NCBI GenBank assembly: GCA_044226015.1 | Contig: JBGAHS010000001.1 | Span: forward strand, 1-64,000 | From: Candidatus Obscuribacteraceae bacterium | Lineage (GTDB): Bacteria > Cyanobacteriota > Vampirovibrionia > Obscuribacterales > Obscuribacteraceae | Reading direction: 5' to 3' | DNA: 64,000 nucleotides | Shown: in pieces, positions 43,182 through 52,800 of the stretch | How positions within the stretch are numbered: position 1 is the stretch's first letter | How the letters are laid out: the number at the start of each line of letters is the position of its first letter | The notes under the pieces: model-generated | What the model saw: the letters and a program-made list of their open reading frames with translations, nothing else | Databases searched by the model: none | Told to the model about the DNA's origin: nothing | Program-made: the position numbers and the translations under genes

Positions 43182-44219
43182 ATGCTAATTTCTGGATTCT
43201 TCTCATTCTTCAAGATGTTGTGTTTTAGCGTTTGCGTTCTGGCAATTGTTGCCATTGCAATGTTGTGTCAGGTGCATCTCGCTGCAGATTTTTCTTTTTC
43301 AAAGGATCTACCTTTGCCGCCTGAGCAATTCTCTTCAGGAAGCCTTTTGGGGAATGGTCCGCAAAGGGCGAAAAGAGAGTTTCCTGGATTTCCGTTGCCC
43401 CGGCACGGATCTTTTGCTGTGTATCAAAATGGTTTGGGTGCCGTTTTGAATGCTGCGATTGACTCGGCACGCAGTGGAAATGCTGAGTCCGAATATGTAA
43501 TGGGCTGGATGTGGGCTTGCGGCTATGGCAGAGACGTTGTTGCGCAAAAAGAATTTCGACGGTTGAACGGTCTTTCAGCAGGAGAGTTTGCCATTGCAAC
43601 AAGTGCATATGTTCGAATCGCATGCTCTGATGAGGAAAATCTCGAAGCTGCGTTCAGGTTCGCACGTAACTGGTACAAGTTAGCAGCTTCCCACGGTTGT
43701 GCGAAAGCCGCAGAGGAGTTAGGGTTTCTTTCGGAATTCGGCAGGGGCGGACCCAGCGACCCGCAAGCTGCACTATACTGGTACGGAAAAGCCGCTGCGG
43801 AAGGCGATGATTCTGCGAAAATGGATCTTGCATTCATGTACGAGAACGGCAAGGGCTGCAAAGCTGACTATAACGAGGCAATGCGCTGGTATGAGCAAGC
43901 CTATAAATCTTCTGCAACTTCAGAATGGGCGTTGGAGAATATTCTGCGCTTATGGGCGACAGATCGCGCTCATCCCTCGTTAAGCTGCCGAAATGGTGCA
44001 AAAAACCTGAAAGAGTTTCTGGCGCAAATTCGCTATTATGATAATACTGGAAAGATAAGCACGACGGTAAATGACCCAGAACTATTAATCCGTGGCATTC
44101 TCGGAGGGCGCTGTATTGGTGCGTCTAAAGAGGTTGATCTTCTAAAGCATCAACATAATATCGATTTTGCACAATATTTGGGTAAAGCGGAGGCGCTCTC
44201 TCAGGAGTGTTTTCAGTAA
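43182..44219 (+). CDS. Sel1-repeat protein with an N-terminal membrane anchor
   Basis: AALYWYGKAAAEGDDSAKMDLAFMYENGKG and related repeats. Confidence 0.85.
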   Translation: MLISGFFSFFKMLCFSVCVLAIVAIAMLCQVHLAADFSFSKDLPLPPEQFSSGSLLGNGPQRAKREFPGFPLPRHGSFAVYQNGLGAVLNAAIDSARSGNAESEYVMGWMWACGYGRDVVAQKEFRRLNGLSAGEFAIATSAYVRIACSDEENLEAAFRFARNWYKLAASHGCAKAAEELGFLSEFGRGGPSDPQAALYWYGKAAAEGDDSAKMDLAFMYENGKGCKADYNEAMRWYEQAYKSSATSEWALENILRLWATDRAHPSLSCRNGAKNLKEFLAQIRYYDNTGKISTTVNDPELLIRGILGGRCIGASKEVDLLKHQHNIDFAQYLGKAEALSQECFQ

Positions 44220-44456
44220 CATAGGGCGCGCGTAGTGCTCTTCTCCTACATAAATCGCCTCGGAGCAGGGTCTGAACTTGTACCCTATTTGGCATTTGAA
44301 CCCAAGTTTTCGCACGTTACTTGCACGTGAAGGCTTGTATATTCTAAACATCCCGAGTAAATGCCAATTCGCAAGTCGTCGGGGACGTGCCCTCCAAATT
44401 CCTTGCCTAAAACAATCCGGCGACTTGCGAAAATCCAATTTACATACGGAAAATGT

Positions 44457-44750
44457 TTGACCTGATGCCCAGCAGCATAAGGTGTCGGAGCAAACATCAG
44501 TCAGCAACCAAACCTCAAACAACCTACCAACTGACTGGTGTTTCCCAACAAAAATTGACCTGATGCCCAGCAGCATAAGGTATCGGAGCAAACACCAGTC
44601 AGCAACCAAACCCTCAAACAACCTACCAACTGACTGGTGTTTGTCTTCCAATTTAAGTTTGACCTGATGCCTAGAAGCATAAGGTATCGGAGCAAACGCC
44701 AGTCATACCAAACCCTCAAACAACCTACCAACTGACTGGTGTTTGTCCTC
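44457..44750 (+). repeat. Three tandem units of about 100 bp (starts 44457, 44555, 44659), each with a small palindrome and a 13-14 bp stem with a C/A-rich loop; candidate ncRNA array
   Basis: Unit ttgacctgatgc-N6-gcataaggtrtcggagcaaacaccagtcag-loop-ctgactggtgttt. Stem variants give G-U pairs only on the + strand. Confidence 0.85.
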
Positions 44751-44774
44751 CAAAAATCATTGACAGGGCTGGAC

Positions 44775-44816
44775 GGAGGAGAGTGATGCAGAGTCATTCT
44801 CCTCCTTGGGGTTTTT
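44775..44816. terminator. Terminator-like hairpin between the array and the 3' end of yitJ
   Basis: ggaggagagtga / tcattctcctcc followed by ttggggttttt. Confidence 0.6.
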
Positions 44817-44819
44817 AGA

Positions 44820-46763
44820 TTACTTACTAGACACTTTCGCTGGTTTTAATTTGCGAACAAACTGGCAAATGTCGTCATATCTTCCAAAAGAAGGCACCAG
44901 ATAAACACCTGCAATGAGTGGGCGAAGCTCTTCGAGGAGTTCTTCGCTGAGTCTCAACCCGACTTCGGCGCCTTTGTCTCCAGCTTCTGCCATTTCCTTT
45001 CTTACATTGTCAGGAATGGTAATGCCTGGAACTTCGTTGTGAAGATATTCGCAGTGTTTATGACTATTCAGCGGCATTATTCCAGCTACTATTGGAATTG
45101 GGCAATCACCGAAATCTTTCAAAAAGTCCGTAAGGTCGCTCAACTGATATAGCGGTTGCGTCATCACGTAATGAGCCCCGGCTTCAATTTTTGCTGCGAA
45201 GCGTTTCATCTCGAGTGCGCGATCAACAGCTGTTGGATTAAGCGCGCAAGAAATGGAAAGTGATGTGGGAGAGCCGATGGTATTACCAGCGATATCATGT
45301 CCTTTGTTGAGTTCGCTGATTATCTTAATTAGCCCAATCGAATCCACGTCGTAAACCGCTGTAGCATGTGCATAGTTGCCAATGCTGGGTGGGTCACCAG
45401 TAAGTGCTAGCACATTTCTTACGCCGAGACCCTGGCATCCCAGCAAGTCCGCCTGTATTCCCATCAAGTTGCGGTCTCTTGTGGTGAAGTGAATGATGGT
45501 GTCGATGCCGACTTGTTGTTGGATAATCAAACAAGTCGCCATGCTGGACATGCGCACTTTAGCCATTGGACTGTCGCCAACGTTGATTGTGTCAGCGCCA
45601 GCTTCTTTCACCTGCTTAGCTGCTTGAAGCAACTTCTTATATACTGCGCCCTTCGGCGGGTCTAATTCAACACTCACGAAGAAGTTATCGCGCTCGTTAG
45701 TTTTTAATTTCTGTCCTACGCCTACTTTTTGACCCTTTTGCGCAGGCTCAGCGGGTTCTTCGTTCTCTTGAACATCTACTCTACCGACACTGATTTTAGT
45801 TGGGAAATTTGCTGGTGCTTTTGCTCCATCAGTATGGTCTGCGTTGAATTTATCCAACGCTTCTCTCATTGCTTTGGTATGTTCTGGTGTTGTACCACAA
45901 CAGCCGCCGATGAGTCTTGCTCCGGCCTCAATGAAAGGTTGGACGAAACTCGCACAATATTCCGGTCGGCTGATGTACATGAAACCATTTCCGACACGAC
46001 CCGGCATACCAGCGTTCGGCTGGCAAGCTAGTGAAATCTTGTCTGGTGTAATCTTCAACTCTGCCAGTGCGGTAGAAAGCTTTTGTAAAGTCTCCAGTGA
46101 TGGTCCTGGTCCGGCACCGCAGTTGATACCAAGTAAATCAGGTCTGTCATCTCCTAGCTCTTTCACCAGGCGTGCAAGGTCGGCAGGAGTAGCGCCGAAA
46201 ACCGTGTGTCCATCTGTCGTGAAACTGAACTGCGCGACTACCGGAAGTTTTGAAATCTTTCGGGCAGCTCTAATTGCTATTGCTGTCTCGATGAGATTTC
46301 CCATAGACTCAATCATGAAGAGATCGACTCCGCCAGCGAGCAATCCTTCCATTTGTTCGCGGAAAGCTGCATCTAGTTCGTTTTTGCTCGTGTCTCCAAT
46401 CGGCGCCAATAATTTGCCTGTTGGTCCGACTGAGCCTGCGATGAAAACTGGCATGCCCGCAATTTCTCGAGCATTCCTTGCCACCTTAGCTGCCCAAACG
46501 TTAAGCTGCCAAACATCCTTTTCTAAACCGTAAGTGGCAAGGCGAAATCTGTTGCCACTGAAAGAGTTTGTTTCAATAACCTGAGCGCCTGCATTGATAT
46601 AGTCAACGTGGACTTGCTGCACTAGCTCTTGTTTGCTTACGTTGAGCTTTTCGAAACCAGCTTCAGCTGATGCTCCTCGAGCGTACAAAAGTGTACCCAT
46701 CGCACCGTCGCCCAGAAGTGGCGATTTCTTTATTGCTTCGAGAAAAGGATGTTGAGTTTCCAT
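44820..46763 (-). CDS. yitJ: Bifunctional homocysteine S-methyltransferase / methylenetetrahydrofolate reductase (likely start METQHPF)
   Basis: DGAMGT and GGCCGTTP, followed by an MTHFR domain (VELDPPKG, RDRNLMG, TGDPP, TQP, LHNEVPGI). Confidence 0.92.
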   Translation of the reverse strand: METQHPFLEAIKKSPLLGDGAMGTLLYARGASAEAGFEKLNVSKQELVQQVHVDYINAGAQVIETNSFSGNRFRLATYGLEKDVWQLNVWAAKVARNAREIAGMPVFIAGSVGPTGKLLAPIGDTSKNELDAAFREQMEGLLAGGVDLFMIESMGNLIETAIAIRAARKISKLPVVAQFSFTTDGHTVFGATPADLARLVKELGDDRPDLLGINCGAGPGPSLETLQKLSTALAELKITPDKISLACQPNAGMPGRVGNGFMYISRPEYCASFVQPFIEAGARLIGGCCGTTPEHTKAMREALDKFNADHTDGAKAPANFPTKISVGRVDVQENEEPAEPAQKGQKVGVGQKLKTNERDNFFVSVELDPPKGAVYKKLLQAAKQVKEAGADTINVGDSPMAKVRMSSMATCLIIQQQVGIDTIIHFTTRDRNLMGIQADLLGCQGLGVRNVLALTGDPPSIGNYAHATAVYDVDSIGLIKIISELNKGHDIAGNTIGSPTSLSISCALNPTAVDRALEMKRFAAKIEAGAHYVMTQPLYQLSDLTDFLKDFGDCPIPIVAGIMPLNSHKHCEYLHNEVPGITIPDNVRKEMAEAGDKGAEVGLRLSEELLEELRPLIAGVYLVPSFGRYDDICQFVRKLKPAKVSSK

Positions 46764-47109
46764 TTGAAGTCTCCAGAACTTGATCAAATTATGGGGCAGC
46801 ATTGTGAAGAAGCTTACACTTTGACATCCAATCCTTACATATGAGACAAATATCGACTGCAATATTCAGCCGCAGTTTCTGGCGAAACAGCTTGAACTGA
46901 AGTCTTGAAAGCTCCTCGATATAAGGACTTTGCGCTGACTAAGGCTGTATTTGATCAGAAGCTGAAATTTCTCTAGCTTCTCGAATTTGCAAACATTCTT
47001 CCGTCTTAAGTTCGCTCAGGAAGGCAATTTCCGCTATCCCTGTTATTATGTCTATGTCTGCCGGCATGTGTCGGCGGCGGTGCAATTGCCTTAGAACGGG
47101 TTAAGACTG

Positions 47110-52032: not shown

Positions 52033-52109
52033 CTTTGTATTGATTCTCTGAGTCCAATTTTTTTTCTTTTTTTTTCTGTGTATTCGTTTTGCAGGAAACC
52101 TTTATGGAG

Positions 52110-52168
52110 AAAGCAAAAACGCACCGGCGACTGCCAGTGCGTTTTTACATCGGGTTGGTTGGGCTGGT
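52110..52168 (-). ncRNA. Candidate sibling sRNA copy 1
   Basis: ACCAGCCCAACCAACCCGAT, hairpin and U tract; promoter at 52175-52206. Confidence 0.65.
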
Positions 52169-52174
52169 GATTAG

Positions 52175-52206
52175 ACTATAGATATTGGAACTGACAAAAT
52201 TGTGAC
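52175..52206 (-). promoter_or_regulatory. GTCAC-N6-GTCAG-N10-TATAGT promoter (also at 52309-52340, 52445-52476, 52664-52695 and 56098-56129)
   Basis: Pentamers and spacing are invariant in five copies while the spacer bases differ; the -10 lies 6 nt before the conserved core. Confidence 0.7.
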
Positions 52207-52243
52207 CTGGAAGAAGAAGTGAATGAGGGGAAGTTTGGAGGAG

Positions 52244-52302
52244 AAAGCAAAAACGCACCGGCGACTGCCAGTGCGTTTTTACATCGGGTTGGTTGGGCTG
52301 GT
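52244..52302 (-). ncRNA. Candidate sibling sRNA copy 2
   Basis: Identical to copy 1; promoter at 52309-52340. Confidence 0.65.
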
Positions 52303-52379
52303 GATTAGACTATAGATATTGGAACTGACAAAATTGTGACCTGGAAGAAGAAGTGAATGCGGGGAAGTTTGGGGGAGAG

Positions 52380-52438
52380 AAAGCAAAAACGCACCGGCGA
52401 CTGCCAGTGCGTTTTTACATCGGGTTGGTTGGGCTGGT
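52380..52438 (-). ncRNA. Candidate sibling sRNA copy 3
   Basis: Identical to copy 1; promoter at 52445-52476. Confidence 0.65.
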
Positions 52439-52596
52439 GATTAGACTATAGATATTGAAGCTGACAAAATTGTGACGTGCTAAGAGATTTGGAAGTGCAA
52501 GAGAACCGCATGTCTTGTGGCAAATAAACTGACCAGATAAAACGGATTCTCTGTGTCCAATTTTCTGTGGATTCGTTTTGCAGGATACCTTTATGG

Positions 52597-52657
52597 AAAA
52601 AGCAAAAACGCACCGGCGACTGCCAGTGCGCTTTTACATCGGGTTGGTTGGGCTGGT
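52597..52657 (-). ncRNA. Candidate sibling sRNA copy 4
   Basis: One stem change (A-U to G-U on the minus strand); promoter at 52664-52695. Confidence 0.65.
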
Positions 52658-52800
52658 GATTAGACTGTAGCTTTTGAAACTGACACAAACGTGACTCGCT
52701 TGGATCAAAATGTTTTGGAAAGAACAACGCACCAGCTTGAGCCGGTGCGCATTTCTACAAGTTTCCACAAAACGATCAATTGAACCGGTAAAATACCATC

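Follow-up and report, generated by a model that had tools for sequence, protein, structure and literature searches.

The cuckoo RNAs of alphaproteobacteria (RSs0680/CcsR1-4), RNAIII of Staphylococcus aureus and the sponge RNA CrfA of Caulobacter are the described systems closest to the locus presented here. According to the parts of the cuckoo RNA reports available to us (PMC4615179, PMC8034643), these RNAs consist of modular hairpins in variable number with compensatory changes in the stems and a C-rich loop that resembles an anti-Shine-Dalgarno (anti-SD) sequence. The repeated module is the anti-SD hairpin itself, and the RNA lies in the 3' UTR of a DUF1127 gene. RNAIII, as portrayed in the available part of PMC2837412, is a long multi-hairpin RNA that pairs several C-rich loops with ribosome-binding sites. 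CrfA (PMC12559287, in part) carries in a stem-loop a G-rich site that can pair with the invariant seed shared by the multicopy sibling sRNAs SisA-D, and this site depends on Hfq. The tandem array of NsiR1 in Nostoc (PMC9045159, in part) is made of separate gene copies with individual promoters; LhrC of Listeria (PMC4132741, in part) is a multicopy sRNA with redundant CU-rich sites, again encoded by separate genes.

The element described in this report would work like cuckoo/CcsR RNAs and RNAIII with a CrfA-like sponge site, but it is a member of none of these groups. Cuckoo RNAs have two to four similar modules with compensatory stems; the element has similar modules with compensatory stems, one or three per genome, each made of two hairpins. 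Unlike in cuckoo RNAs, this repeated two-hairpin unit is not the anti-SD hairpin (H0, see below), the CCUCCUCCC loop motif is absent (the loops hold CCCUCC, UCCUU and CCCUCA only), stems and loops are much longer, and the element has its own predicted promoter. We found no match to the cuckoo family in Rfam, the host belongs to another phylum, and there is no DUF1127 gene next to the locus. With RNAIII there is no match in sequence or in Rfam either; H0 does expose a conserved anti-SD loop of the RNAIII/LhrC kind, but the element contains an expandable module, lacks a conserved internal ORF, and its targets are predictions. A conserved and accessible complement to the seed of an sRNA family is found computationally at 44760-72, yet it sits in a linker before the 3' hairpin of an RNA much larger than CrfA. 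Finally, no promoter and terminator of its own was found for each copy of the array; the NsiR1 organization fits a second family at 52-56 kb of the same DNA, not the array, and the array also differs from the separate gene copies of LhrC.

Results and Discussion

The window is a stretch of 64,000 nucleotides from the genome of a Candidatus Obscuribacteraceae bacterium (G000; 8.19 Mb, 92% complete), a non-photosynthetic relative of cyanobacteria. For comparison we used congeners, among them G007 and G006, and an independent DNA run (X2). A sequence-only reading of the window had flagged positions 44457..44750 as three tandem RNA-like units with periods of 98 and 104 in a convergent intergenic region. 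This description holds: the units start at 44457, 44555 and 44659, are 95% identical along their full length, and are recognized by TRF as 3.0 copies with a period of 98 and an 89% match. Each unit is a module of two hairpins.

44457..44554, plus strand: module copy 1, with hairpin A at 44460-83 (loop CCAGCA) and hairpin B at 44492-44543 (26-nt G-free loop)
44555..44658, plus strand: module copy 2, with hairpin A at 44558-81 and hairpin B at 44590-44642 (27-nt G-free loop)
44659..44753, plus strand: module copy 3, with hairpin A at 44662-85 (diverged loop) and hairpin B at 44694-44744

Hairpin A contains eight standard pairs and a fixed G.A mismatch. Its loop had been described as variable between fixed arms; in fact CCAGCA occurs in copies 1 and 2 as well as in G007, and only copy 3 deviates, with one of its two differences reverted in X2 (44675 A>C). 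Hairpin B has 12-13 pairs that close a 26-27 nt loop which is, as stated before, free of G in all copies. The observation that the stem substitutions pair on the plus strand only is also correct (U-G in copy 1, G-U in copy 3). The modules are separated by A/U-rich single-stranded linkers. Folding of the array gives z-scores of -7.3 for the plus and -4.1 for the minus strand, and none of 100 shuffles was as stable on either strand.

A genome-wide copy count, proposed in the sequence-only reading, returned a single locus and no dispersed mobile repeat: the 8.19 Mb, 92%-complete genome of G000 contains no second copy of the array. Among the 12 hairpins with G-free C-rich loops in this 8.2 Mb genome, three come from the array. 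We rejected a dispersed MITE/REP repeat on the grounds of the single locus and the plus-strand-only wobbles. The earlier conclusion that the array is not CRISPR stands as well, given near-identical units in place of unique spacers, no other repeat copy and no cas genes as neighbours. Contigs of X2 span both unit junctions, and therefore the array is no assembly artefact. The genome holds 133 tandem arrays with periods of 50-200, 47 of them mostly outside called ORFs. Since intergenic tandem duplication is this common, triplication by itself is not evidence of function. As a separate observation, contigs C1, C4, C6, C7 and C10-C12 of G000 carry dozens of intergenic tandem arrays (period ~55-85), built around the palindrome CGGTACCG or else around GCGATAGC. 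They resemble a system of protein-bound DNA repeats that spans the genome, with clusters on particular contigs.

The array is the internal triplication of a two-hairpin module (A + B), which belongs to one larger conserved plus-strand element; this element extends beyond the flagged span by ~110 nt on the upstream side and by 65 nt on the downstream side. Its best-conserved functional candidates, a 5' anti-SD hairpin and a 3' anti-seed motif, lie outside 44457..44750.

43182..44219, plus strand: Sel1-repeat gene, upstream; not kept as neighbour in G007, where another gene stands
44310..44343, plus strand: predicted promoter with a CAC direct-repeat box (44310-44327) and a -10 hexamer (44338-44343); architecture as in the promoters of the 52-56 kb sRNAs
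44350..44815, plus strand: predicted full RNA, ~465 nt in G000 and ~248 nt in G007, both ends putative
44368..44431, plus strand: hairpin H0, a 16-bp stem with a conserved loop containing the anti-SD motifs CCCUCC (44390-95) and UCCUU (44400-04)
44760..44772, plus strand: anti-seed motif UUGA-CA-GGGCUGG, which can form 7+4 bp with the 5' seed of a multicopy sRNA family
44775..44816, plus strand: 3' hairpin (44775-44805, 13 bp) followed by a GGGGUUUUU tail, probably the terminator region
44820..46862, minus strand: homocysteine S-methyltransferase/MTHFR gene, convergent neighbour, the same in G007

The convergent neighbour is a gene that we take to be YitJ-like. G007 is the only congener with a match (2 of 41 genomes, G000 included). 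It contains one module in the same place downstream of the same gene, with another upstream gene that appears channel-like by eye. Because the upstream neighbour differs, the element is not the 3' UTR of the Sel1-repeat gene. Conservation between G000 and G007 spans ~44310 to 44815 and includes the promoter (44310..44343); the order is CAC direct-repeat box, -10, 5' segment, H0, module, 13-nt motif, 3' hairpin and GGGGUUU. At the 4-fold sites of the adjacent gene 66 of 258 positions are identical (25.6%), which means saturation. The element keeps 12 exact blocks of 7-16 nt each (115 nt in total) although these synonymous sites are saturated, and this points to selection on the element.

The structural covariation with a homologue that the sequence-only reading had called for is present. 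In an alignment of the four modules, pairing holds in 81 of 82 cells, and 5 of the 21 pairs are changed on both sides, a result matched by 0 of 500 shuffles; this alignment was fitted to the model, and all five double changes come from the single congener G007. The upper stem of H0 shows one double and one single change. Since MAFFT misaligned the stems of G007, a script was used to count those H0 pairs that lie outside the upper stem. Two strain variants in X2 (44379, 44424) both retain H0 pairs on the plus strand, and every wobble change favours this strand. Hairpin A keeps 16 identical nucleotides in G007, the G.A mismatch among them. The B loop is kept more in composition than in sequence. 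The 3' hairpin has another sequence in G007 and equal structure (15 bp); in a consensus scan of the window it does not qualify as a canonical hairpin-then-U terminator.

The full element folds with z-scores of -10.5 (plus) versus -4.3 (minus) in G000 and -8.1 versus -3.5 in G007 (60 shuffles each). We rejected a minus-strand RNA or a minus-strand G-quadruplex in view of folding and wobble bias. The 5' end (44350-44357) can pair with the 3' end (44805-44812) at -10.8 / -13.8 kcal, with a change from G-U to G-C between the two genomes; the probability of this pairing is high in G000 and only ~0.4 in G007. No small ORF inside the element is conserved between G000 and G007. The two genomes share a structure that is conserved under covariation on one strand and that differs by one versus three modules. 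We consider it very probable that this element is a plus-strand structured RNA under selection.

The range of the element is narrow, with 2 of 107 genomes of the order (G000 and G007). Pattern searches, BLAST and the covariance models R2 and R3 revealed no other homologue among these 107 genomes, many of which are incomplete, the models being built from two species. A DNA search with the G007 copy gave matches in 13 of 107 genomes at E<=0.1, strong in G000 and G007 only; 13 weak loci were inspected and none is homologous. R2 and R3 were likewise strong in these two genomes only, and four weak matches of each model were rejected after inspection. Further matches of R3 among 40 relatives were weak (E>=0.048). 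The B-loop pattern, exact or with mismatch, occurred in 1 of 107 order genomes; matches of the H0-loop and hairpin A patterns beyond G000 and G007 were inside ORFs or without structure. Syntenic stretches (100 kb unfiltered, 484 kb filtered) contained no element besides that of G007. Metagenome scans produced 0 and 1 match, the latter inside an ORF, viral scans 0 matches and 1 chance match, and a genome pattern scan 35 matches, of which 34 fall in other phyla and 1 in Obscuribacterales. The Rfam search that had been proposed gave no match at gathering score, neither in the window nor in two related loci, and in E-value mode returned eukaryotic or viral noise alone.

Several known classes were discarded. 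No 6S RNA or RNase P RNA model matches the array; RNase P RNA is found at C6:773337 and a 6S-like RNA at C6:800553. The latter (C6:800553-800757, minus strand of G000) is a divergent RNA missed by Rfam here, which we located by way of sub-threshold matches in congeners (27-42 bits vs a cut-off of 46). Retron ncRNAs and type III antitoxins are followed immediately, on their own strand, by a gene for a reverse transcriptase or a toxin. At this locus the next gene is the convergent methionine-synthesis gene in both genomes, and we rejected both classes. Another conserved intergenic hairpin, which begins TTTCGGTGCAGAAGCC, occurs downstream of the yitJ-like gene in five genomes of a different genus, g48 (L021, L024, L026, L030, L032).

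We then turn to transcription. A promoter matrix trained solely on 44 promoters of the 52-56 kb sRNA family places the best site of the region, on either strand, at a start near 44350 (score 14.4; 12-13.5 at the aligned position of G007), and 0 of 3863 sampled intergenic positions score as high. This promoter class is common (141 intergenic positions at 12 or more in G000), and the result therefore supports the start site, not co-regulation with the sRNA family. The architecture of a CAC direct repeat, 10-11 nt and TAnnnT heads many genes and sRNAs of G000 (one at ~9073 of the window, minus strand); it is possibly the main promoter type of the lineage or the mark of a large regulon.

The sequence-only reading had offered two options, three sibling sRNAs that start at the stem base with TAAGGT as -10, or one multi-hairpin RNA. 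In the first case each unit would be a gene with a TTGACC/TAAGGT promoter and the palindrome an operator. Tandem sibling sRNAs with their own promoters do occur, at 52 kb of the window and, as far as the available part of PMC9045159 describes NsiR1, in cyanobacteria. However, the two hexamers are spaced by 15 nt and are not recognized as a promoter in a consensus scan. G007 retains neither of them, having TAAGGC and no upstream TTGACC. Starts at the stem bases do not rise above background in the promoter matrix, where 20-74% of 3863 random intergenic positions reach their scores. None of the units has a conserved terminator of its own, and the palindrome shows the covariation of an RNA stem that encloses a conserved loop. 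The idea of three sibling genes is largely refuted, and we give it hardly any weight. The second option, one multi-hairpin RNA on the plus strand, is supported by covariation, strand bias, the single promoter and the one-unit orthologue, and a single transcript is likely.

Two metatranscriptome runs of one study each contain one contig over the array (44476-44618 and 44514-44642, >99% alike) and nothing on either flanking gene or elsewhere within the 4 kb examined. Both contigs run through palindromes and across the linker between units 1 and 2, which disfavours separate RNAs for each stem. The contigs are unstranded, 129-153 nt long, have a depth of 4-5 and were chosen by their match to the array stretch; they miss H0 and the 3' motif and could be DNA or favoured by collapsed repeats. 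As support for transcription they are weak. These contigs also bear on a variant that is compatible with a single transcript, namely that one precursor is cut in the linkers to release hairpin sRNAs, with the modules as active species. Such processing has a precedent in CcsR1-4, according to the available part of PMC8034643. The linkers are indeed A/U-rich and single-stranded, and the contigs cover modules 1-2 only. Nevertheless, their continuity across the linker of units 1 and 2, together with the pairing of the 5' and 3' ends that suggests a single folded molecule, make processing of this kind improbable in our judgement.

What could a single long RNA do? The anti-SD motifs of H0 are 67-83% unpaired in the predicted fold, and both CCCUCC and UCCUU match the 16S tail found in G000, a genome with strong SD usage (AGGAG 8x, GGAGG 7x upstream of starts). 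We searched 5764 rough initiation regions, with gene starts taken from a crude ORF caller. The best site for the H0 loop (-36.4 kcal) covers the SD of a gene for an 825-aa Pro-kumamolisin-domain protease. This energy was reached by 0 of 300 dinucleotide shuffles and by 1 of 300 with both anti-SD cores fixed; part of the site is also the mRNA's own hairpin. The orthologous site scores -21 in G007 and -23 to -25 in G006, a genome in which no copy of the RNA was found. Two sites at small-protein genes fall from -29 and -26 in G000 to -14 and ~-17 in G007. The H0 site of G007 (-30.5) covers the SD of a 224-aa ORF and is the strongest at a plausible start among 19 pattern matches outside G000. Strong sites are predicted in each genome, but they are not orthologous, and the two genomes with the RNA show no enrichment of the H0-complement pattern (4 and 5 vs 0-4). 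The protease gene (C5:257234-259711 in G000, minus strand) and its paralogues form a Pro-kumamolisin-domain (S53-like) family that has expanded and whose proteins carry long N-terminal extensions; G000 has at least 8 such genes, and each congener gives 5-16 matches.

The function of the module is the least settled part of the explanation. Outside the array, the central 14-mer of the B loop finds a perfect complement at just one place, over the SD of a macro-domain gene (C1:292337, minus strand); 7 of 300 shuffles reached a complement of 14 nt. A 12-nt complement lies at the predicted +1 of a 196-aa gene in the window (9020-8430). Neither target is kept or compensated in G007 with its own loop (-13 for the macro-domain gene, -9 for the 196-aa gene). 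B-loop duplex energies are no better than those of shuffles (15-48%), and 31 candidate 5' UTRs show no excess of B-loop complements over composition. Several loops and statistics were tried, so that single p-values near 0.02 are weak.

An alternative is that the RNA is a protein decoy, in which the repeated A and B loops would bind an RNA-binding protein and the triplication would raise the capacity for titration. The amplified part of the element is the module, and its G-free loops are fully exposed in the predicted fold (86-100% unpaired). The B loop is conserved in composition over sequence, the mRNA targets are not conserved, and hairpin A maintains its identical stretch with the mismatch. 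On the other hand, neither CsrA nor Rho was found in the 92%-complete genome, the G-free loops offer no GGA, which led us to reject a CsrB/RsmZ-type decoy, and no candidate protein gene is linked to the locus. We regard a protein decoy as a rather unlikely main function. In the same genome, a 79-aa Hfq-like ORF (L158:1459-1698) scores 25.6 bits, just below the Pfam cut-off of 27.

The 52-56 kb repeats form a separate sRNA family with 12 copies in G000, seven of them in the window and five at further loci. Each copy has an invariant 20-nt 5' seed, its own promoter and a terminator.

52100..52660, minus strand: four of the seven window copies, predicted partner of the anti-seed motif
Starts 53779, 55765 and 56091: the other window copies

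The family is found in 8 of 107 order genomes from two genera, often clustered near the array locus, and has no Rfam match in the window. The loop of hairpin B had been likened to its seed. This likeness is no greater than composition would produce: 7 nt are identical in G000, a length reached by 23% of 2000 loop shuffles. An identity of 11 nt requires a seed variant from G006 (0.7%, noted post hoc).

The link to this family is complementarity at 44760-72, where the motif is identical in G007. The duplex of anti-seed and seed has -18.2 kcal with the U variant (6 of 20000 random genomic 15-mers are as good) and -16.0 kcal with the C variant (27 of 20000), and a net energy of -12 to -14 kcal after opening costs in both genomes. 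No other conserved block pairs with the seed at less than -8 kcal, and 8-22 of 2000 controls match it. The motif was noticed post hoc and then tested on other loci. A generalized form has 40 sites in G000, of which 12 are the siblings' own antisense and five others are intergenic. Three of these five directly precede a terminator-like hairpin (background 26 of 400), namely the array locus, C3:336843 and C7:577037. Letters that vary at the other loci oppose the unpaired AA of the seed. G007 has a second site (L308) that resembles a small-RNA gene; judged by eye, it lies between the same pair of genes that surrounds the C3 site. A DNA search for this second anti-seed RNA found it in 0 of 5 congeners, and twenty further pattern sites in congeners are mostly within ORFs. 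Alternatively, GCUGG could pair with the A loop as a 5-bp pseudoknot. TTGACA within the 3' motif was also considered as a -35 and dropped by eye, with no properly spaced -10 in either genome.

The surroundings of these sites deserve a separate description. At C3:336500-336900 (L344, G000) and L308:1210-1560 (G007), several small genes of RNA-like appearance are clustered, and each is accompanied by a sequence that resembles a CAC-box promoter. The cluster combines RNAs with C/A-rich seeds and one RNA with the anti-seed before a terminator. Relative to the two shared flanking genes this cassette appears inverted between the genomes. At C7:576950-577050 (minus strand, G000) a 155-aa gene carries the anti-seed in its 3' UTR, immediately ahead of a terminator, which makes this a candidate for a 3'-UTR-derived sponge or a target site.

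The invariance of the anti-seed in both genomes, its standing as the sole conserved block with strong pairing to the seed, its recurrence before terminators and the placement of its variable letters elsewhere opposite unpaired seed positions raise the question as to whether the RNA is chiefly a sponge for the sRNA family, or the precursor of a short 3' sponge RNA, with the upstream hairpins as scaffold or for stability. We regard this as unlikely, albeit the foremost competitor to our preferred reading: the anti-seed is a single site and not the amplified part, the conserved anti-SD loop is left unexplained, and six other genomes carry the sRNA family with no detected copy of the RNA.

Conclusions

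The reading we prefer, and to which we assign about an even chance, is one RNA that acts in trans by base-pairing and combines an anti-SD loop with an expandable module of auxiliary C/A seeds and with an anti-seed directed at a sibling family. One promoter would give one transcript from 44350 to ~44815. The H0 loop with its two anti-SD motifs would pair over the ribosome-binding sites of selected mRNAs and block initiation. The G-free C/A loop of each module would offer additional seeds that suit initiation regions rich in G/U; triplication would provide more sites with no new specificity, or may be neutral slippage. The 3' motif would pair with the invariant seed of the 12-copy family, so that either the RNA titrates the sRNAs or the sRNAs turn the RNA over.

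A broader proposal, more tentative than this reading, is that the element is the hub RNA of an sRNA-sponge network in Melainabacteria, to which the order Obscuribacterales belongs. It would combine an anti-ribosome-site hairpin, a copy-variable seed module and a 3' anti-seed that titrates the 12-copy family, with the anti-seed-plus-terminator element reused in other small RNAs and 3' UTRs of a lineage whose Hfq would be highly diverged and for which neither CsrA nor Rho was found. In the open-access literature we found no account of regulatory RNAs of Obscuribacterales or Melainabacteria; supplements of RNA-motif surveys could list the element. Its general importance is limited by the narrow range of two genomes and by the predicted status of its targets. 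If the reading is true, the locus would be part of an RNA-RNA circuit that links a multicopy sRNA, an anti-seed RNA and ribosome-site seeds. This circuit would operate in the sister lineage of cyanobacteria that does not photosynthesize, and the difference of one versus three modules would be a natural dosage experiment.
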